Assembly: GCF_001677475.2 (NCBI RefSeq)
Contig: NZ_CP012497.1
Length of the DNA: 64,000 nt
From: Escherichia coli
Lineage (GTDB): Bacteria; Pseudomonadota; Gammaproteobacteria; Enterobacterales; Enterobacteriaceae
Strand: one strand, 5' to 3'
Of this stretch, positions 55,252 to 64,000 are shown in pieces (the first letter of the stretch is position 1; every line of letters starts with the position of its first letter). Below the pieces are notes generated by a model, which was not told the origin of the DNA, did no database searches, and saw nothing but the letters and a program-made list of their open reading frames with translations. Made by a program: the position numbers and the translations under genes.

Positions 55252-55704
55252 TCAGATACGTGCGGATGTGGCATTACCGTAATGACGGTGCTGACGGGCC
55301 ACCTTATTGAAAAGTTGACGCGCCATTACCCAAGGCTGGTGCTCCCGGCGTTCCTTTTCGTCCTGCGTCATATAGAGTTCGTTCTGGAGTTTTTCATCAA
55401 ACCGGCGCGGCGCGCGGCTGCGGCGAAAGAATTCAGGATTCAGAGAGTGGATCTGAAATCTACGTGGGCGTGTACTGTCATCAATCAAAACAGACGAATA
55501 CTTAGACACAGCGATAGCCTTTAAGCGCAGATAAACGTCGCGCTTATCGACATCCAGATGCGGGTATTCCTTTTCAAGGATTGCTGCGAGTTCTTTCGCT
55601 GATAGAAGAGATTTAGTGCGGATCATGTAATCCGCAATCTCATACGATGTTATTCGTGAGTGATTTATTTCCATGAAGTGGCGTCCCTGCCAGTTAAGTA
55701 ACAT
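55252..55704 (-). CDS. lpa: Lpa-like late promoter activator (by size and position)
   Basis: 150 aa directly upstream of pacA; preceded by a C1 operator. Confidence 0.55.
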   Translation of the reverse strand: MLLNWQGRHFMEINHSRITSYEIADYMIRTKSLLSAKELAAILEKEYPHLDVDKRDVYLRLKAIAVSKYSSVLIDDSTRPRRFQIHSLNPEFFRRSRAPRRFDEKLQNELYMTQDEKERREHQPWVMARQLFNKVARQHRHYGNATSARI

Positions 55705-55776
55705 CCTGTCACCTACTGATTAGCCCATGTCAACTAATCAACGTGCAATATAATACACTAGATTAAAGAAATATCA

Positions 55777-55791
55777 ATGCATTAGAGCAAT
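55777..55791. promoter_or_regulatory. C1 operator-like site upstream of lpa
   Basis: Reverse complement ATTGCTCTAATGCAT. Confidence 0.45.
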
Positions 55792-55792
55792 T

Positions 55793-56836
55793 TTATCTAA
55801 CACACGACGAATGACTTGTGATAGCGCCGACTCCAAGCGCGTAATCAAAGAACAATCGTTGATGCATCGCCAGCCTGCCGTGCGTTTTCTCCCAATTATC
55901 GCGGTCACGCTCAATATCACGCTGGCATGACTGGCACAGAGGAATTGCGTAAATGTCATGCGCGCATAATCGACTATGACGAACGATATAAGGCGTAATG
56001 TGAGCGCCAGCTCTCGCAGCTCCACAGCCACAGCATGGACGGGAAGCCACAAAGTCCATGTACTCGGGCAATTTTAGCGATTGAAGTTTTGGTATTTTGA
56101 AATGCGCCATACCTGGGTCGGAGTCAACATCCACAGGGCATACTTTTGCACGCATCGGCGCGGCGCGTTCTTCCATCATCTGAACATATGCTGTAGCGCG
56201 ATCGTCATACGGGCGAATATCCGCCTCTTTCAGAGGTCCGCTATCCTGCGTTGCAGCTTTCATCTTATTTATTGATATACGGCAGACTTCTTCCGGCATC
56301 AGGTGCATCATGTTGCGCATGAAAGCCCACCAGCACAGTTCCTGAATACTTAAATCATGGCCATCTGAAAGCCCCATTTCCTGACGGGCGACATCCAGCA
56401 TCCAGTTAACGCGATTATTATGCAGCGTTTCTTTCAGCTCATTAAAACCACGCATCCGGTAATGGTTATCGTGATGCCAGCACAACAACACCGCGCTATT
56501 GTCTCGTTCAGCGTGGACAATATGGTTGTCACACCAACTACGATCTGCGGCCTGGCATCGCCCCTCTTTCCTGCGCAACCACGCCACCAGCGCGTCAATT
56601 CCACCAATACGGCGAAACAGTTCATCGCTGTTAAAAAACGGCTGCAACGCCTCATTTGTTGCCATGGTTTGCTCGGAAACAACGAGGCCGTCGTCCATGT
56701 GCTCGATTAACTCACGCGGCACCGGCTCCATAATAAATTTACGGCCAGCCTCCACCAGCTTTCTGACTTCCTGATCCACTTTGAATGTGGCGAGGCCAAG
56801 CTCTTTTTGTACAAAGGGAGTAATTACGGCTTTCAC
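55793..56836 (-). CDS. Cys/His-rich hypothetical protein (pdcB position)
   Basis: 347-aa ORF with several Cys/His clusters. Confidence 0.4.
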
Positions 56837-56863
56837 ATCACACCTTTAATCACTGATTGGGCT

Positions 56864-57064
56864 TTATCTGCTGCCCGGCATTTTCTGTTTAAGCACAACC
56901 ATTTCCTGACGGCATAACACAGCAATAGCGGTCCTGGCACCAATTTGCTTACCAACCAGGTATTGCTTTACCTCGCGGCGACTCACGCCATCAAGAAGCA
57001 TCTTTAACGCTCTACGGGACAATTTGTTGTATTTACGTGCCATTAATCTACTCCGCAGAACCAT
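56864..57064 (-). CDS. Small basic hypothetical protein (pdcA position)
   Basis: 66-aa ORF overlapping the doc 3' end. Confidence 0.3.
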
Positions 57065-57428
57065 ACAATCTACGTAACGTGGCGGCGACAGTAGATACAG
57101 ATATCTCTCCGGTCGCAGCCCCTACGGTAAGGTCTGCCAGTTCTGGTGAATCAAATACCTGCACCCCGTTACGGCGTAGAAATAGCAGCGCACTGTTTAG
57201 CGCGGTACGCTTATTGGCATCATTGAATATATGCCCTCTCGCAGTAGCCACCAGGTAGGTGGCGGAGACTTCGAAAAGGTCGGTGATCTCTTCGTAGGCA
57301 ACTCTGGCCTGAACTCTCCCGATAATGGCCTCTGCCCTACCCGGATCTGACATTCCCGGCAGGCCGCCGTAGCGGCTTATATTCGCATCATGAAGCGCAA
57401 TAAGTTCTTCCGGTGATATATGCCTCAT
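57048..57428 (-). CDS. doc: Doc toxin (Fic-fold)
   Basis: 126 aa, [25 protein letters not shown]... Confidence 0.9.
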
Positions 57429-57649
57429 TATCGGTTTACCAGTTCCTTGTTGGTGGAGTCCAGGGTGTCAAACAGGGATGCAAATTCGGCATCCAGCGCC
57501 GCTTTTTTGTAGGCTTCGAAAGTAGCCTTGCTGACAATTACTGCTGGCTCACGGCCTCTGCGAGTGATTTCAACCTCTTCCCCGGCTTCAACATTGTTGA
57601 GCACTTCAGAAAGGTTGCCGCGCGCGGTACGGAAGTTAATGGATTGCAT
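57428..57649 (-). CDS. phd: Phd antitoxin
   Basis: 73 aa, [41 protein letters not shown]...; the ORF-track start is 2 codons upstream. Confidence 0.9.
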
Positions 57650-57721
57650 AAACACCTCGTGTACTCGTTATGTGTACACAATTATAAACTTCACAGGCAT
57701 AAAGCACCAGCACTTTGCAGC

Positions 57722-58111
57722 TTAAATCACCGGACAATCATCAAATTCCCCACTTCGGGCATCATTAATGACATGAGTGATCACACCAAAAACAGCATTA
57801 CTACCCGTGTAACCATCGTCATCTACTGGTAACGCCTCTTTCTTCCCGGTGCTTAAATCCTCAAGGTGCTGACGCGGATACTTTCGGTATCTCTTTATGC
57901 GATATTCACCCTCCATAGCGCAGACAAGCAGCGAACCATCAACTGGAGTAAGCGAAGAATCAACCACCAGCAAAGCACCCTGCAATATTCCCTCACGGTG
58001 ATGACTATCAGCTGCCCTCATGAAGTAGGTCGCTGAAGGATGTCTAATTATCTGCTGATCAAGAGAAATACGGCTCTCAGCATAATCCGCCGCAGGAGAA
58101 GGGAAGCCCAT
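57722..58111 (-). CDS. humD: HumD (UmuD'-like S24 peptidase domain)
   Basis: 129 aa, S24 LexA/UmuD-like C-terminal domain. Confidence 0.8.
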   Translation of the reverse strand: MGFPSPAADYAESRISLDQQIIRHPSATYFMRAADSHHREGILQGALLVVDSSLTPVDGSLLVCAMEGEYRIKRYRKYPRQHLEDLSTGKKEALPVDDDGYTGSNAVFGVITHVINDARSGEFDDCPVI

Positions 58112-58127
58112 AATACTCGCCTCTTAA

Positions 58128-58147
58128 TACTGTATATACATACGGTA
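58128..58147. promoter_or_regulatory. LexA (SOS) box upstream of humD
   Basis: TACTGTATATACATACGGTA vs consensus TACTG(TA)5CAGTA. Confidence 0.5.
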
Positions 58148-58442
58148 TATGTTGAAGCTATATATTTTTGAACTCTATCTCTTAAAAAAGATGTTAATAA
58201 GATGCTAACTATTGAAAGGCATAAATATATACAATTCCAACAAACGTTATTTTTAACAAATTTTTTCTCTCCGTTGACTTTTGCGAAAGCCTTGTCTGGC
58301 CTAAATTGCGCGGAAGCTACTTTTTCCTTCCTGAGTTATCCACAGAGTTATGCACTTGCATGTATAACCTATACACACTATCTTAATTCGCAAGACACTG
58401 ATGTTGCGGTATTGAAGGTTCATTGGGTTAAAAATAGACATT

Positions 58443-58473
58443 AAAAAGCCCAGTTGACTAGGCTGGGCTTTTT
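58443..58473. terminator. Rho-independent terminator-like hairpin (A-run / T-run flanked)
   Basis: AAAAAGCCCAG-TTGACTA-GGCTGGGCTTTTT. Confidence 0.5.
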
Positions 58474-58773
58474 AAGAGGAAACAGAGTTTGCGGCTCTGT
58501 TCCTGAGCCATAAGTATCTGGCGACTGAATTAAGATTAACCGAATGTACTGGATTCATCAAGAAACGTTGAGTGGTCATACCAGGTAATAATGACCATTT
58601 ACTAAACATCGTTGTTCTCAAAGAAGATTTAAGTCCAGGTTTTTGGTGACTCTAAAACCTTACCTTAACTCGAAATCGTGCCGTAAGTATCTGGCGACTA
58701 CAGATATTGCAACTGCAAAGGCAAGCCCAAAGGTATTTGCAGCTAGGCGCGATAAAACTAAGTGAGACCTGTT

Positions 58774-58857
58774 ATGGTTAACTTACTGTTCAAAATCGTG
58801 CCGCCGATGTTCGCGATTATCAAAGCGATCATTGAGTACGTAAACCAGCGTCCATAA
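58774..58857 (+). CDS. Candidate 27-aa hydrophobic peptide
   Basis: ATG...TAA encoding MVNLLFKIVPPMFAIIKAIIEYVNQRP, followed by a hairpin at 58871-58897; weak SD. Confidence 0.2.
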   Translation: MVNLLFKIVPPMFAIIKAIIEYVNQRP

Positions 58858-58912
58858 CGCTAGTTGCTACAGGCCCCATCAAGAGCATGGGGCCTCTTTA
58901 TCGTACTATTGC

Positions 58913-59578
58913 TTATTTTTTACGGACTGAGTTGTTCACTGCTCTGGCAATCTTCTCCCGCAATTGCTGCGTTCCGTGGTACTGAACCGCAATATCCCTC
59001 AACTCGTTCACCAGTTCTCGAATCTGGTGATCTTTAAGCTCATTATTTGGGTGATTGGTAACAACTCTGGTTAATTCACCCTTGTCTTTTGCTCTTACGT
59101 ATGCAGCTCTTGTGCATTCGACCCATGTATTACCGCCTACATTAACTTCGTAGATTAGGCTGGACTTATCTGTCAATTCGGAACAAATACGGGCCGTGGT
59201 CTGGCAACTAGAGCATTCGCAGTTATCGCGGAAACCGTGGTCTACTGGCTTCGGTTTCACATCATCAACTTTTTCTACCCTATTGGAATTTAAATACTTC
59301 GAAGCCTTGCTATGCCAATCGCTTGTTTTAGGATCTTGTCCATCCATCAAACGCCAGGCTTCAGCGATTAACTCATAACTAGTGACTGTAGCTTCCTGCG
59401 CATCACCAACAAGCCGTGTAATCTCTCTTTCAAGCCGACCGCCTAGCTCTGTTTTAGTGCAATGTTCTGACCAATCGCCAGCCTCAAGCAGCGCGAGAAT
59501 GCTTAAAATATCGTCCAATAGAACGGTAGTATTATCGACTTCCTTCTGAAACTCACCGGCTACTGATTTATGCATCAT
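58913..59578 (-). CDS. Hypothetical late protein
   Basis: 221-aa ORF in the minus-strand late operon. Confidence 0.4.
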   Translation of the reverse strand: MMHKSVAGEFQKEVDNTTVLLDDILSILALLEAGDWSEHCTKTELGGRLEREITRLVGDAQEATVTSYELIAEAWRLMDGQDPKTSDWHSKASKYLNSNRVEKVDDVKPKPVDHGFRDNCECSSCQTTARICSELTDKSSLIYEVNVGGNTWVECTRAAYVRAKDKGELTRVVTNHPNNELKDHQIRELVNELRDIAVQYHGTQQLREKIARAVNNSVRKK

Positions 59579-59781
59579 TCGTCATCCTCATCACAGGATG
59601 AGAGTAGTGGGTTAGTCATTCGCCCTACTTGAGTGGCGTAGCCACGCCGACAGAGATTGCGCAGCACACTGTATATTTCGAACATCTCGGTTCGTTCATC
59701 GCCAACATCAAGCTCAGATGCTATAGCGTGGCATTCAGTCGCGAGAGCCGATATTTTCTGAAATAACTCTGCTTTATTCAC
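59575..59781 (-). CDS. Hypothetical small acidic protein
   Basis: 68 aa, 4-bp overlap with the downstream gene. Confidence 0.3.
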   Translation of the reverse strand: MNKAELFQKISALATECHAIASELDVGDERTEMFEIYSVLRNLCRRGYATQVGRMTNPLLSSCDEDDE

Positions 59782-60046
59782 TCTTCGACTCCTGTGGCGG
59801 TTCTGGTAGTGGCATCCAGTGAGTTAGTTTCGATGCTGATTCTTCCCCATCGTCAGTGACTGCCCACCATTTGTTTCTCGACCAATCGTAATACCTTTCG
59901 AAGGTATCGCACTCAGTCCAGCCGTAAGACTTATCCATAAAAATGAAATGGACGCTAGCGCCAGCTTTTCGCTGTGCTTCCATCAGATGAACGAGATAAG
60001 CCGATGTTCGTCCACCTGAAAAGCTGACGACTTGATGCATACTCAC
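59774..60046 (-). CDS. PP-loop ATPase-like N-terminal fragment
   Basis: 90 aa with VVSFSGGRTSAYL (PP-loop motif) but too short for a complete PAPS-reductase/QueC-type enzyme. Confidence 0.35.
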   Translation of the reverse strand: MSMHQVVSFSGGRTSAYLVHLMEAQRKAGASVHFIFMDKSYGWTECDTFERYYDWSRNKWWAVTDDGEESASKLTHWMPLPEPPQESKSE

Positions 60047-60049
60047 GGT

Positions 60050-60778
60050 TTATTCCTGAATGCGCTTAAACTCGATTACCCACACCCAGGGATTAGCGTT
60101 CCAGCTTTCTTCGCCGTAGATGGACTCCCACAGACGCTGGAACGCAACCTTGGCCATTGCGAAGTCCCCATTGGGAGTAAGGAATGTTCCCGGGTAATCA
60201 GGAAGTAAACTTCCAGCAGGCGGAACGCCCTCAGCCCCTGCATCGCATTCGCTGATATCGTTCAACCGCTCAACGCGCACGTTGGTAATTTCCAACAGAA
60301 TGCGTGATGCCCATCGCGGCATGTGAATTGATGGACGCCACCCACCATCAAACTTTTCATTCACAGTGTGAGGTTTCCAGTCGGCATCATCGGGTATCGA
60401 CCATAAGCCGTAATCACCAGGCTTTTGCTCACAACTGGCCCGATAAATCCTTGCTGCGTTCTTCTCATCGCCACGACAAGGGTTGTCGTTCCAGTCCACA
60501 CTGCAACCATCCTCATTGCCTAATATCGCCCATGTTTCACGAACCCAAATTCGATCGCCGACGATACCAAAGGGGCAATTGAAAACACTGCTTACACCAT
60601 CAGCCCCGTACCACTGAAAACCTGCACCAATTTTTCTAACCATCACTGGTGCTTCTGGACCAACTTCCGCAGGCTGATTTTTCATTATCCGCCGCGTCTG
60701 CGTTTTCCTTCCTTCGAGGATGGCCCGGACCATCTCATCGTTGAAAATCATGCCGCGCTCTTTCACTTCGCCTTTCAT
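60050..60778 (-). CDS. Hypothetical protein
   Basis: 242-aa ORF with 4-bp overlap to the downstream gene. Confidence 0.4.
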   Translation of the reverse strand: MKGEVKERGMIFNDEMVRAILEGRKTQTRRIMKNQPAEVGPEAPVMVRKIGAGFQWYGADGVSSVFNCPFGIVGDRIWVRETWAILGNEDGCSVDWNDNPCRGDEKNAARIYRASCEQKPGDYGLWSIPDDADWKPHTVNEKFDGGWRPSIHMPRWASRILLEITNVRVERLNDISECDAGAEGVPPAGSLLPDYPGTFLTPNGDFAMAKVAFQRLWESIYGEESWNANPWVWVIEFKRIQE

Positions 60779-60787
60779 GCATCCCCC

Positions 60788-60874
60788 TTACCCATGCGCG
60801 ACGATGCCGCCAAAAGTGATAGAGAACAGCCAGAAATAGATCGCGGCCATAATGATTTTGAATGCCGTGTTCAT
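60788..60874 (-). CDS. Candidate 28-aa hydrophobic peptide
   Basis: MNTAFKIIMAAIYFWLFSITFGGIVAHG with SD AGGAG 8 nt upstream, 9 nt before the next gene start. Confidence 0.3.
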   Translation of the reverse strand: MNTAFKIIMAAIYFWLFSITFGGIVAHG

Positions 60875-60958
60875 ATTTTCAGCTCCTGTGATTGATTGGA
60901 TACATGCCGCGCCTTGCGGCATGTTTTTATTTTCACTTTCTCTGTTTTAAAAATCAAC

Positions 60959-60973
60959 ATTTATTAGAGCAAT
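60959..60973. promoter_or_regulatory. C1 operator
   Basis: Reverse complement ATTGCTCTAATAAAT, exact consensus core. Confidence 0.55.
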
Positions 60974-61479
60974 TATTGTTGATGAAGAAGCGCATTTTCA
61001 TACTCCCTAACCATTAATGTAAGTACGCCGTGACTCCTGAAAACACGCGCCACTTCAATCTTATCTTCCAGCGCGAACGCAATTTTACTTAGACCAATTT
61101 TCTTCAGGAGATCAATCTTTGCTGGACCGTCATTTCTGTCATCGGTGGCAGGACGCATAGATAGCAAAGGCTCATCCCCGTTTGTTACGTACTTTCGCAG
61201 CCAGGCTCGTGTTTTATCCCTTGCGATCTCACAGCGCCCGGTTACAAACCAGACCGTGTAAATGCTGGATAACTGGCGCACCATATCAATAACTGGAGTA
61301 ATGGGAGCATCAGTTTCACAGGCAAGGTTAAACTCGTTCCAGTGCTCTGTTAATGCACCTTTACCTGGTGGTGGAAGTAAATGCAGCCTGTCTTCCGTTG
61401 CCTCTGATATCGTCCCATCAATATCTACTATGACGATGTACGGACGTTCCTGGTGTGCGTGTTTATTGAAAATACTCAA
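60973..61479 (-). CDS. pap: HAD-family phosphatase (Pap-like)
   Basis: 168 aa, HAD motif I VIVDIDGTIS. Confidence 0.55.
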   Translation of the reverse strand: MSIFNKHAHQERPYIVIVDIDGTISEATEDRLHLLPPPGKGALTEHWNEFNLACETDAPITPVIDMVRQLSSIYTVWFVTGRCEIARDKTRAWLRKYVTNGDEPLLSMRPATDDRNDGPAKIDLLKKIGLSKIAFALEDKIEVARVFRSHGVLTLMVREYENALLHQQ

Positions 61480-61551
61480 ATGCCCTCCTCATTGGACGAA
61501 AAAAATGCTGGTGGGCGCACTCCACCAGCATTAAAAGTGACACTGTAACTA

Positions 61552-62814
61552 TCAGCGAACGTAAATAGTGCCGCCGTTCTCTTTTTCCCATGCATCGCTA
61601 CGTGCATAGCAAACATCGAGAAGTCTTCTTGCCGCAGTTTCCTCTAAACCCAATTCGACAACCAACTGCTCATGACGGCGGGTAACCACATCAAACAGGG
61701 TATGCAGTCCTTTAGTTGCCAGATCATCAATGAATTCCGGTTCGAACGGCAGCTCTGCATCTGCCAACATAACCTCTTGCGCCCACTCAACTCGACGGAC
61801 CAGTTCCGGGCGGCGGCTTTCCATCTCTTTACAGATCAATTCATGGAAGAACTCTACCCAACCTTCCGGCTGGAACTCGCGGAAAATTGCCAACGGCTGG
61901 AAGTTTGGCATCAACCATTCGTTGATTCGGATATCAATGGCATAGCCCATGTCGCAGCAGAACTGATAAGCAAAGTCCAGCTTAGAAACGATATAAGGAC
62001 GCTCGTTATTGAACTCTTTAGGCGATGAGATCCCATAAGCCAGGAGGCGCGGGAAGAAGGAGATTTGCCCTAACGTCGGATGAAGTTTGCTTGCAGGGAA
62101 ACGGCGCTCAGTAATGCCATACATTTCCTTCTTGAGCGTCGCAAATTTGGCATTCTCATTAACCAGCGCGGTAACCTCTGCTTTTTTATTAGCAAATGCC
62201 ACGCGCGCCTCACTTGCATCTTTAATAGTCTTTTTGAGCTGTTGGTTAAGGTCGGCGACCTGCTTACGCAGTTCCTGTCGCTCACTTTTGGCTTTGTTAT
62301 AGCGTTTCTCAAGGTTAAAAGGATCAAGTTTCATGATCTCTTTATATTGAGATTTTAGCGTTGAAATCTGTGAGTTCCGCAGTTCAACCATCGCTGTCAT
62401 TTCATTGAGTTTTGTTTCCAGCTCAATGCTTATACGTTCGGCATTATCAGCACGCAGGTTGGCGTCATGCGTCGCATCGTCGATCGCATCCTGTTGCTGG
62501 CGTTTCAAATGTTCAATTTGCAGATGAAGCTCTTCAATTTCTTTACCCTTCAGGCCGAGATCCAACTGCATATTTTCGGCTTCATCTACCAGGGAGTTAT
62601 GGCTATCAGCTTCTGCGTTATAAACATCAATAAGCTGTGCGTGAAGCATCTCCGCTGACTGAACCGCATTATCAAAAAAACGCGCTGTGAGGTCATCACA
62701 ACTAACGCGGCGTTGCGCGGCTCGGATGTTCTGGATAATGGCCGGGATACCGGCATTCAGGACGTCAGGGATAGATACATTTTCGATTGATTGGTTTTGT
62801 GCTGAAGTGCTCAT
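61552..62814 (-). CDS. Hypothetical coiled-coil protein
   Basis: 420 aa with a long coiled-coil segment. Confidence 0.4.
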   Translation of the reverse strand: MSTSAQNQSIENVSIPDVLNAGIPAIIQNIRAAQRRVSCDDLTARFFDNAVQSAEMLHAQLIDVYNAEADSHNSLVDEAENMQLDLGLKGKEIEELHLQIEHLKRQQQDAIDDATHDANLRADNAERISIELETKLNEMTAMVELRNSQISTLKSQYKEIMKLDPFNLEKRYNKAKSERQELRKQVADLNQQLKKTIKDASEARVAFANKKAEVTALVNENAKFATLKKEMYGITERRFPASKLHPTLGQISFFPRLLAYGISSPKEFNNERPYIVSKLDFAYQFCCDMGYAIDIRINEWLMPNFQPLAIFREFQPEGWVEFFHELICKEMESRRPELVRRVEWAQEVMLADAELPFEPEFIDDLATKGLHTLFDVVTRRHEQLVVELGLEETAARRLLDVCYARSDAWEKENGGTIYVR

Positions 62815-62815
62815 T

Positions 62816-63034
62816 TCAAAGTTCCGTATTAGCTTGTTCTTCGGTCATTTTTCCTAAGTATGAAGGTGGAAGGACTACGCAATTTGTATCCAGCCCCTCA
62901 CCTATGGCAGCCTGTAAAATTCTGGCTAAGGTGAGCCTCTTGTTGCGATACCTGGTGATGACATGCCTGATACCGCCGGTCGGCGTAACAAAGGCGATCA
63001 GCCAGTAGTGATATTTCCGTCGGAATGGCCACAT
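62816..63034 (-). CDS. Hypothetical small protein
   Basis: 72 aa; preceded by a pair of C1 operators. Confidence 0.3.
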   Translation of the reverse strand: MWPFRRKYHYWLIAFVTPTGGIRHVITRYRNKRLTLARILQAAIGEGLDTNCVVLPPSYLGKMTEEQANTEL

Positions 63035-63048
63035 AGTGCACCTTGCAG

Positions 63049-63065
63049 ATTGCTCTAATAAAAAA
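63049..63065. promoter_or_regulatory. C1 operator (plus orientation)
   Basis: ATTGCTCTAATAAAAAA. Confidence 0.5.
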
Positions 63066-63099
63066 CGTGATGAGTGTACATCACGTTTTAAAAATATGG

Positions 63100-63114
63100 A
63101 ATTATTAGAGCAAT
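63100..63114. promoter_or_regulatory. C1 operator (minus orientation)
   Basis: Reverse complement ATTGCTCTAATAATT. Confidence 0.5.
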
Positions 63115-63115
63115 A

Positions 63116-63817
63116 TTATTCTGATTCTAGCTCAAAAAACGAGCTAATAAGGGGAAGCCAATCCTCTGACACTTCGCGAGGTCGCGGTTTGCCGTGGAAA
63201 AAGATTATTCGGCAGTCCTTTGGTAATGCCCCATTCCCCCTGGAGTAACGCGCGCTTGCATATTTTGAACCAGGTTCCACAACATCGGCCTTGTAACTTA
63301 CAAACCATCCCGGATACAGATCCTGAAATGCTGGTGTATCATCGCCCATAACCTTCCGTAAGAACCCCTGATCACCCCAGCACTCAGTAGTGACACAACG
63401 AGAAATCCAACCTTCCGGATCTTGCCAGAATGAACTCCAGATATGCGCTTTTACACTATTTGGTATCCACAGGGCACCGCTACCACGATATTGTGGATGG
63501 TAAAAATCCCTAAGCATGGTGAAGCTGGTTGGTGGATTCTCAAGGATTGGGCGTATATCACCGGCAATAACCGTGTCCAAATCCAGATAGAACAGATCAT
63601 CGGTTATATCCGGTCGGAACAACTCGATTTTCGCCCACCAGCCACGGCACTTTTGCCACTGGTTGATCAATGGGACAACTTTGACGCCAGGTACATGTAA
63701 ACGCTTCAGGTCTGTCAGGCAAATAATTTCATAGCCTTTTGGCAGTTGATTAACCAGCCACTGCACATCGGAAGCGTTATAGTCACCACCAGAGCGAAGA
63801 ACTAAAGCAATCTTCAT
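63116..63817 (-). CDS. Hypothetical protein
   Basis: 233 aa; its start overlaps the stop of the upstream phosphatase gene. Confidence 0.4.
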
Positions 63818-64000
63818 GCTGCACCATCACCTTTCACTTTCATCAATGTCAGGTTTCCGCAAAATACGGCACCAGTGTCGATATAATGCTGATTCCAGAA
63901 TGTCTTCGGGATTTTCACCGGAGTGTGACCAAAGATAAAACGATCTGCGCCCGAAATTTCGCCACCAATATCATCCATCGAATCACTGATACGCTCGCGC
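63814..64000 (-). CDS. Ser/Thr protein phosphatase (calcineurin-like metallophosphatase), C-terminal part; gene continues past window end
   Basis: Open frame to the window edge encoding ...[43 protein letters not shown] (GHTP and IDTG motifs). Confidence 0.55.

Follow-up and report, generated by a model that had tools for sequence, protein, structure and literature searches.

Small single-pass proteins of the enterobacterial membrane, such as AcrZ, MgrB, MgtR, MgtS, KdpF and CydX, bind larger membrane proteins. The type I toxins, i.e. Hok, Ibs, TisB, ShoB and Ldr, form another group of short and hydrophobic peptides. Phage P1 is a model phage and a standard tool of transduction, and its C1-repressed operons are turned on once repression lifts. 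At the level of the transcript, a stem-loop without a 5' overhang classically shields an E. coli mRNA from 5'-end-dependent decay (RNase E, RppH).

Here we describe a 28-codon ORF in a P1-type genome of E. coli. The window, by which we mean the whole stretch of 64,000 nucleotides that was analysed, carries around this ORF a phage genome with 97% identity to P1 and its relatives P7, SJ46 and RCS47. In such genomes the segment from pmgT to humD is a known hypervariable region (PMC9603915), and the genes pap and pmgT-V were found by CRISPRi to be nonessential for lytic growth, in a study whose targets did not include the 28-codon ORF itself (PMC10695390). In the literature searched on pmgT, Op88 and the small membrane proteins of phage-plasmids this ORF is not mentioned, and neither a ribosome profiling nor a proteomic study of P1 came up. 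From the comparisons given below we estimate at about 0.72 the probability that the ORF is a genuine, translated gene for a small membrane protein and the first cistron of the C1-repressed Op88/pmgT operon.

The locus and the open reading frame

Two groups of known genes flank the site, all of them on the minus strand of the window: doc, phd and humD at 57048-58111 (phd-doc occupying 57048-57655), and pmgS, pap and a pmgT-like gene at 62814-60050. The ORF sits in the 194-nt gap between pap, which encodes a HAD phosphatase, and the pmgT-like gene (60050-60778), a homologue of which is described by RefSeq as an ASCH-domain protein in one E. coli plasmid record. No lysis genes were found near the ORF, i.e. 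there is no adjacent endolysin or spanin of the kind that would mark a holin in a lysis cassette. Among 5,426 complete E. coli genomes, 563 contain the locus in full.

We note that the window differs from reference P1 in the set of genes downstream of the pmgT-like gene. The pmgT product is annotated with 309 aa in reference P1 and has 242 aa in the window, and a 90-aa ORF of the window (59774-60046, minus strand) resembles an N-terminal fragment of PAPS reductase fused to a DUF551 domain.

A hydrophobic frame of 28 codons had been pointed out at this site by a sequence-only reading that did not state the strand. The ORF is real and is read on the minus strand, where with its stop codon it occupies positions 60788..60874, from the ATG at 60874-60872 to the TAA at 60790-60788; its product is MNTAFKIIMAAIYFWLFSITFGGIVAHG. 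The Shine-Dalgarno sequence AGGAG (60887-60883, minus strand) stands at a good distance from the ATG, with an 8-nt spacer (CTGAAAAT) between them, and only 9 nt (GGGGGATGC) separate the stop codon from the ATG of the pmgT-like gene (60778-60776; junction 60776..60787), just as that reading had described. In the 64-kb window this is the only ORF of 20-50 codons preceded by AGGAG with 4-9 nt before its ATG. When the 194-nt intergenic region was shuffled, a GGAG-preceded ORF of at least 28 codons was obtained in 91 of 20,000 cases (0.46%).

The hydrophobicity of the product was assessed with 19-residue Kyte-Doolittle windows. The best window covers residues 7-25 and scores 2.10, and in the forms of five lineages, which are described below, the best 19-residue means range from 2.0 to 2.4. 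All of these forms have an N-terminal flank with a charge of +1 (K6) and a neutral or acidic C terminus. The product is therefore predicted to be a single-pass membrane peptide with its transmembrane segment at residues 7-25, and because of the positively charged N-terminal flank the positive-inside rule would place the N terminus in the cytoplasm and the C terminus outside. In our reading of the alignment the conserved positions 11, 15, 18 and 22 (A, W, S/T/C and G/T/N, respectively) share one face of the helix, an arrangement that would suit helix-helix contact in the membrane.

Annotation and start codon

The expectation that standard annotation would miss an ORF of this size holds for a part of the records. 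The curated entries of P1 and P7 have no CDS at this position. On the other hand, a 44-aa 'membrane protein' is annotated here in Salmonella phage SJ46 (J46_0098), the 44-aa hypothetical protein WP_001312275.1 of RefSeq is present in some plasmids while nothing is called in others, and NCBI also has a 28-aa entry (ECO9545_16321). The 44-aa forms hold the entire 28-aa peptide, i.e. they represent the same gene, and a function is named in none of these entries. Stop-loss and fusion variants, in which the peptide is continued by different downstream sequences, are also found among the database proteins (P0009-P0013, P0017, P0019).

The longer form corresponds to the 44-aa frame at 60788..60922 in the ORF listing, which begins at an in-frame upstream ATG (60922-60920). 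This codon lies in the 5' arm of a hairpin, has no Shine-Dalgarno sequence, and would be situated at the extreme 5' end of an mRNA that starts at about position 60922, buried in a stable stem. It is found only in the P1 lineage and is absent in the other four lineages, whereas the arrangement GGAGC, 4-7 nt and ATG is kept in all of them. The 44-aa start is thus probably wrong, and the ATG linked to the Shine-Dalgarno sequence represents the conserved start; leaderless initiation at ATG 60922 is still formally conceivable.

Operator, promoter and 5' leader

The C1 operator Op88, also called OpmgT (ATTGCTCTAATAAATGT; 60957..60973, minus strand), is located upstream of the ORF and shares one base with pap, the last of its stop codon. 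It is annotated at the homologous position in NC_005856, and the P7 record lists the same operator as controlling the 'hea' operon. Two sigma-70 promoters are predicted at OpmgT in the P1 record. The better-conserved one, P1pmgT (60929..60957, minus strand), is predicted to consist of the -35 hexamer TTGATT (60957-60952), a 17-nt spacer and the -10 hexamer GAAAAT (60934-60929), and the predicted transcription start is at about 60922. At the sequence level we see what is expected of a C1-controlled operon, i.e. a 17-bp C1 operator that overlaps the promoter. The operator is kept in five of five lineages, and as read from the sequences, the -35 (TTGATT or TTGTTT) and -10 (nAnAAT) hexamers recur at equal spacing in the Salmonella plasmids, in L119, in JK004 and in L134/L136.

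These signals disagree with the earlier placement of the ORF inside a late operon. The 9-bp -22 box of late promoters (AAGTTACTT, as in LPhot) was sought on the minus strand from 55704 to 64000, with 1 mismatch allowed, and was not found. Because a C1 operator and predicted sigma-70 promoters lie upstream and no late box was found, the ORF is, judged by these signals, the first cistron of the C1-repressed Op88/pmgT operon, and would be expressed early, not late.

Position 16 of the operator (window 60958) shows all four bases among the P1-lineage loci: it is a G in the window, and among 105 loci it is C in 66, A in 30 and T in 8. The eight T calls come from the same 8 loci that are suspected of having an upstream indel and may reflect misalignment, since the upstream positions of these loci were compared without alignment. 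In this unaligned comparison the remaining operator positions appear largely invariant.

The predicted mRNA has a 9-bp stem-loop at its 5' end (ACATGCCGC-AAGGC-GCGGCATGT; 60902..60924, minus strand), which contains the upstream ATG mentioned above and which forms in both the MFE and the centroid structures of the window sequence. It is followed by the single-stranded linker CCAATCAATCAC (60888-60899), which together with the Shine-Dalgarno sequence spans 60883..60899 on the minus strand; both are unpaired in the centroid fold. As read from the sequences, a hairpin is found at the same position in all lineages (e.g. L110 1556-1582, L109 3034-3056, and upstream of the ORF in L134 and L136), starting 5-6 nt past the -10 hexamer, i.e. 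at the expected first transcribed base or at most 2 bases from it. It is conspicuous that the stems of the different lineages (ACATGCCGC, AGGCCAC, GGCCGC, GGCGGTCGC and GGCAGTCAC) are unlike each other and that the pairing is kept throughout. Compensatory double changes occur at 5 of the 8 consensus pairs, and L134 and L136 differ by a clean switch from G-C to A-U. By analogy with known leaders the hairpin is probably a 5'-terminal stem-loop that stabilises the mRNA.

The linker and Shine-Dalgarno motif CAATCAATCA[CT][AC]GGAGC is common to the diverged lineages and is shortened to CCAATCACCGGAGC in L134-L136. The linker CCAATCAATCAC itself is nearly invariant across lineages that are otherwise diverged (CCAATCAC in L134-L136); it might enhance translation or serve as a binding site.

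Read on the plus strand, this hairpin and the TTTTTATTTTC behind it are scored as an intrinsic terminator, which is so in the P1 lineage alone. The T-run in question corresponds, on the opposite strand, to an A-rich stretch made up of the last bases of the -10 hexamer and those that follow directly, and Salmonella, L119, JK004 and L134/L136 do not have it. The hairpin was therefore rejected as the end of an antisense RNA.

Homologues in other phage-plasmids

Four other lineages of P1-like phage-plasmids have a homologous ORF, of 46-53 aa, in this position. They share a common layout, in which a C1 operator, the -35 and -10 hexamers, the hairpin, a linker ending in CCAATCA[CT][AC]GGAGC, the ATG and the hydrophobic ORF follow each other in this order. 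The first lineage is represented by the Cronobacter phage JK004 (53 aa, MHLIFKLAITAFYAWMLTVVITSFKPDANMK...), whose Pap is 71% identical; the second by Salmonella plasmids of 86-94 kb that are without pap (46 aa, MHTVFKLAMAAFYIWIFTIVFTGIAKATPVN...); the third by the IMG/VR contig L119 (48 aa, MNTAFKLAMAAFYFWIFCIAFNGLVKAAP...); and the fourth by the three Logan contigs L134-L136 (53 aa, MQVLIKLAVTAFFVWLF...TSFKPDANMRAS...). M1, K6, A11 and W15 are invariant in all forms; at positions 5 and 13 the L134-L136 group has I and F, respectively, where every other form has F and Y. The N-terminal transmembrane helix is the sole part that is common to all lineages.

Downstream, the junction with the next gene varies: there is a 9-nt gap in P1 and a 4-nt gap in Salmonella, the two genes share TGATG in L119, and they overlap by ATGA in JK004 and in L134-L136. 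In these other lineages the gene that the small ORF overlaps or abuts encodes a winged-helix protein of 104 aa. A functional tie between the two was rejected for P1: since the window has no homologue of the winged-helix gene, the peptide would be independent of it. In the Salmonella plasmids p21-SA00706-0 (L110) and pCVMN1543 (L111), which are without pap, the module of operator, promoter and small ORF comes directly after pmgS, and the 46-aa ORF and the downstream winged-helix gene are both unannotated.

No meaningful family match was found for the 28-, 44-, 46-, 48- and 53-aa forms in PHROGs, NCBIfam, Pfam and PADLOC, the best being phrog_27041 with E = 0.16. An exhaustive HMM search of 1.84 billion representatives, together with a word-indexed protein search, returned this family alone, in 12 clusters; one further match, within a protein of 4,536 aa, is spurious. 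A degenerate DNA pattern run against one genome per species found two Escherichia contigs only, and a chance match in a Flavobacteriales MAG. The distribution of the family is narrow, i.e. it is that of the P1-like phage-plasmids of Enterobacteriaceae, yet the family is common in practice.

Sequence variability and selection

The variability of the coding sequence was compared between lineages in an alignment of 24 codons from five lineages. Over codons 1-24 the P1 and the Salmonella forms have 14 of 24 residues identical, and their differences are distributed as 9/4/14 over the three codon positions; generally, variation is lowest at second and highest at third positions. For pairs of distinct lineages pS ranges over 0.51-0.89 in the same codons, i.e. 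synonymous sites are saturated, as against a pN of 0.16-0.45. The reading frame of the ORF is open in all lineages, and the other two frames contain stops in some of them. Within the 53-aa clade, where the full length including the tail can be compared, pN/pS is 0.26-0.47. Over these codons the substitution pattern is that expected of a translated coding sequence under selection. In other words, the related phage-plasmids provide the conservation that the sequence-only reading had named as a check, both as homologous ORFs and as substitutions of the coding type.

Within the P1 lineage the picture is less marked. Here, 112 IMG/VR stretches were retrieved with an anchor placed in the linker ahead of the ORF, which kept the ORF sequence itself out of the selection. 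Among the P1-type copies the 87-nt ORF is intact in 105, broken at codon 20 by foreign sequence in 2, and cut by the contig end in 1. The 105 P1-lineage loci contain 11 nonsynonymous and 10 synonymous variants, compared with a neutral expectation of 71-77% nonsynonymous (binomial p 0.02-0.10, according to the transition bias assumed). Those that alter the protein are concentrated at G22, G23 and G28, where the helix ends or has already ended. The constraint on the peptide within the P1 lineage thus appears to be real but weak.

The junction with the cargo genes

The P1 form stops at the point where the other lineages run on into an acidic tail of 20-25 residues, and the homology breakpoints of the hypervariable region between pmgT and humD lie 4 nt after its stop codon. 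Most simply, the tail would have been lost when the cargo was replaced in the P1 lineage, with the transmembrane helix spared in full. The P1 form could accordingly be a truncated remnant, without the tail that the other lineages keep under selection.

Clustering of the junctions shows two main downstream junctions among the P1-type IMG/VR loci, with about 78 and about 28 loci. An 84-nt fragment corresponding to window positions 60784-60867 (codons 3-28, the stop and 4 more nt) is found with about 99% identity in about 280 plasmids, mostly of the IncF type, and in about 320 further E. coli genomes. In plasmid pZH193 (L137 2501-2584) the fragment is flanked by IS1 and by the 3' end of a type I hsdR gene, and PGAP annotates it as 'membrane protein, partial'. 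The fragment seems to be what is left of a P1-like backbone whose variable region was replaced by an hsd cassette.

Alternative explanations

The main rival to the membrane-peptide account is that only the act of translation matters. The ORF would then be a leader cistron that loads ribosomes for the next gene, through coupling, protection from Rho or stabilisation of the mRNA. The constant position of the small ORF, which is always the first cistron and always abuts the next gene, is what such a leader would require, and the breakpoints just past its stop keep it joined to the promoter when the cargo is exchanged (PMC9603915). The weak constraint on the peptide within P1 and the tolerance of C-terminal extensions point in the same direction. 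However, a coupling device needs no conserved hydrophobic helix with invariant K6, A11 and W15 at a distance where synonymous sites are saturated, nor does it need the purifying selection seen in the tails of the 53-aa clade. In P1, moreover, the downstream gene has its own Shine-Dalgarno sequence, GGGGGA. A leader peptide of the attenuator type was looked for as well: neither a terminator nor space for alternative structures was found between the two genes, the distance being 9 nt in P1, which leaves no room for an attenuator, and an overlap or a 4-nt gap elsewhere. We regard a purely translational role as unlikely, though it deserves to be kept in mind.

A considerably smaller probability is given to the view that the ORF is not a gene, i.e. 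that a frame happens to be open in a sequence conserved as a 5' untranslated region or as a recombination junction. Among the P1-type phages the 206-nt region has an identity of 97-99.5%, as against about 95-97% for the flanking genes, which could mean constraint at the nucleotide level or recent recombination, and the curators of P1 and P7 made no call here. Nevertheless, the frame, the position of the start relative to the Shine-Dalgarno sequence and the hydrophobic pattern persist despite saturated third positions, and the shuffling experiment puts the chance of a Shine-Dalgarno-preceded ORF at 0.5%. This reading is poorly supported, and so is the last one, which is slightly less probable still: a type I toxin-like membrane peptide of the Hok/Ibs kind, silenced by C1 and perhaps by an antisense RNA, and killing on loss of the repressor or host shut-off, would agree with the small size and strong hydrophobicity of the product, with a low-copy plasmid prophage that already has phd-doc, and with the clean intrinsic terminator on the complementary strand just upstream of the P1 ORF start as a possible antisense end, but no promoter-like site was found on that strand between 60600 and 61100, the T-run is not kept outside the P1 lineage (so that the antisense-terminator idea was dropped), the ORF is apparently co-transcribed with the downstream genes instead of standing alone, its Shine-Dalgarno sequence is not sequestered, and there is no PADLOC or Pfam match.

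Possible function and relation to known systems

In the membrane-peptide account, the peptide would be made when C1 repression lifts, i.e. on infection or induction. The mRNA would begin with the stem-loop, continue with the conserved unstructured linker and then present a strong Shine-Dalgarno sequence to the ribosome. The product would reside in the inner membrane, with a short N terminus whose K6 faces the cytoplasm, a transmembrane helix at residues 7-25 and a C terminus of 3 residues. Our committed guess is that the helix binds another membrane protein, of the host or of the phage, within the bilayer, because the helix is the only part common to all lineages and because A11, W15, S/T/C18 and G/T/N22 lie on one of its faces. 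Given that the neighbouring genes pap and pmgT-V are nonessential, the phenotype may be a subtle one.

One can speculate further that the peptide is the founding member of a group of small membrane effectors of phage-plasmids, fixed as the first cistron at the entrance of the pmgT-humD cargo and acting early on the host envelope. This we hold to be a long shot, of about the same standing as a purely translational role. Such an effector might serve superinfection exclusion, block a membrane-bound defence or transport protein, or kill on repressor loss, and would be expressed from an mRNA stabilised by its 5'-terminal hairpin.

Whatever its function, it would be worthwhile to add this conserved gene to the reference annotation and to amend the records that call it from what is probably the wrong start. 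At the same time the ORF forms the constant left boundary of a hypervariable cargo region and follows a conserved 5' mRNA structure, which makes the locus a tidy case for the expression of cargo modules.

Compared with known systems, the leader resembles the ompA 5' UTR type, as in both a stable hairpin at the first base (predicted in the present case) is followed by an unstructured ribosome-binding region. The two differ in that at our locus the structure is kept and not the sequence, and that the transcription start is a predicted one. With the type I toxins the ORF has in common that it encodes a short hydrophobic peptide on a plasmid or prophage. It is unlike them in that no antisense RNA gene was detected, in that it is part of an operon with an exposed Shine-Dalgarno sequence, and in that there is no sequence similarity.

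There is also a likeness to AcrZ, MgrB, MgtR, MgtS, KdpF and CydX, which like the members of this family have 26-50 aa, one transmembrane helix and little else. Genes of the AcrZ type frequently escape annotation, and some share a transcript with other genes. The peptide shows no sequence similarity to AcrZ, MgrB and the others, and it is encoded by a phage-plasmid under the control of a phage repressor. We infer the binding itself, with which the face formed by A11, W15, S/T18 and G/T22 would be compatible if it is of the AcrZ type, i.e. if it occurs between helices. In this sense the ORF appears to be a new member of a familiar class, the small hydrophobic proteins overlooked by annotation, and represents a modest gain in annotation rather than a new type of system.
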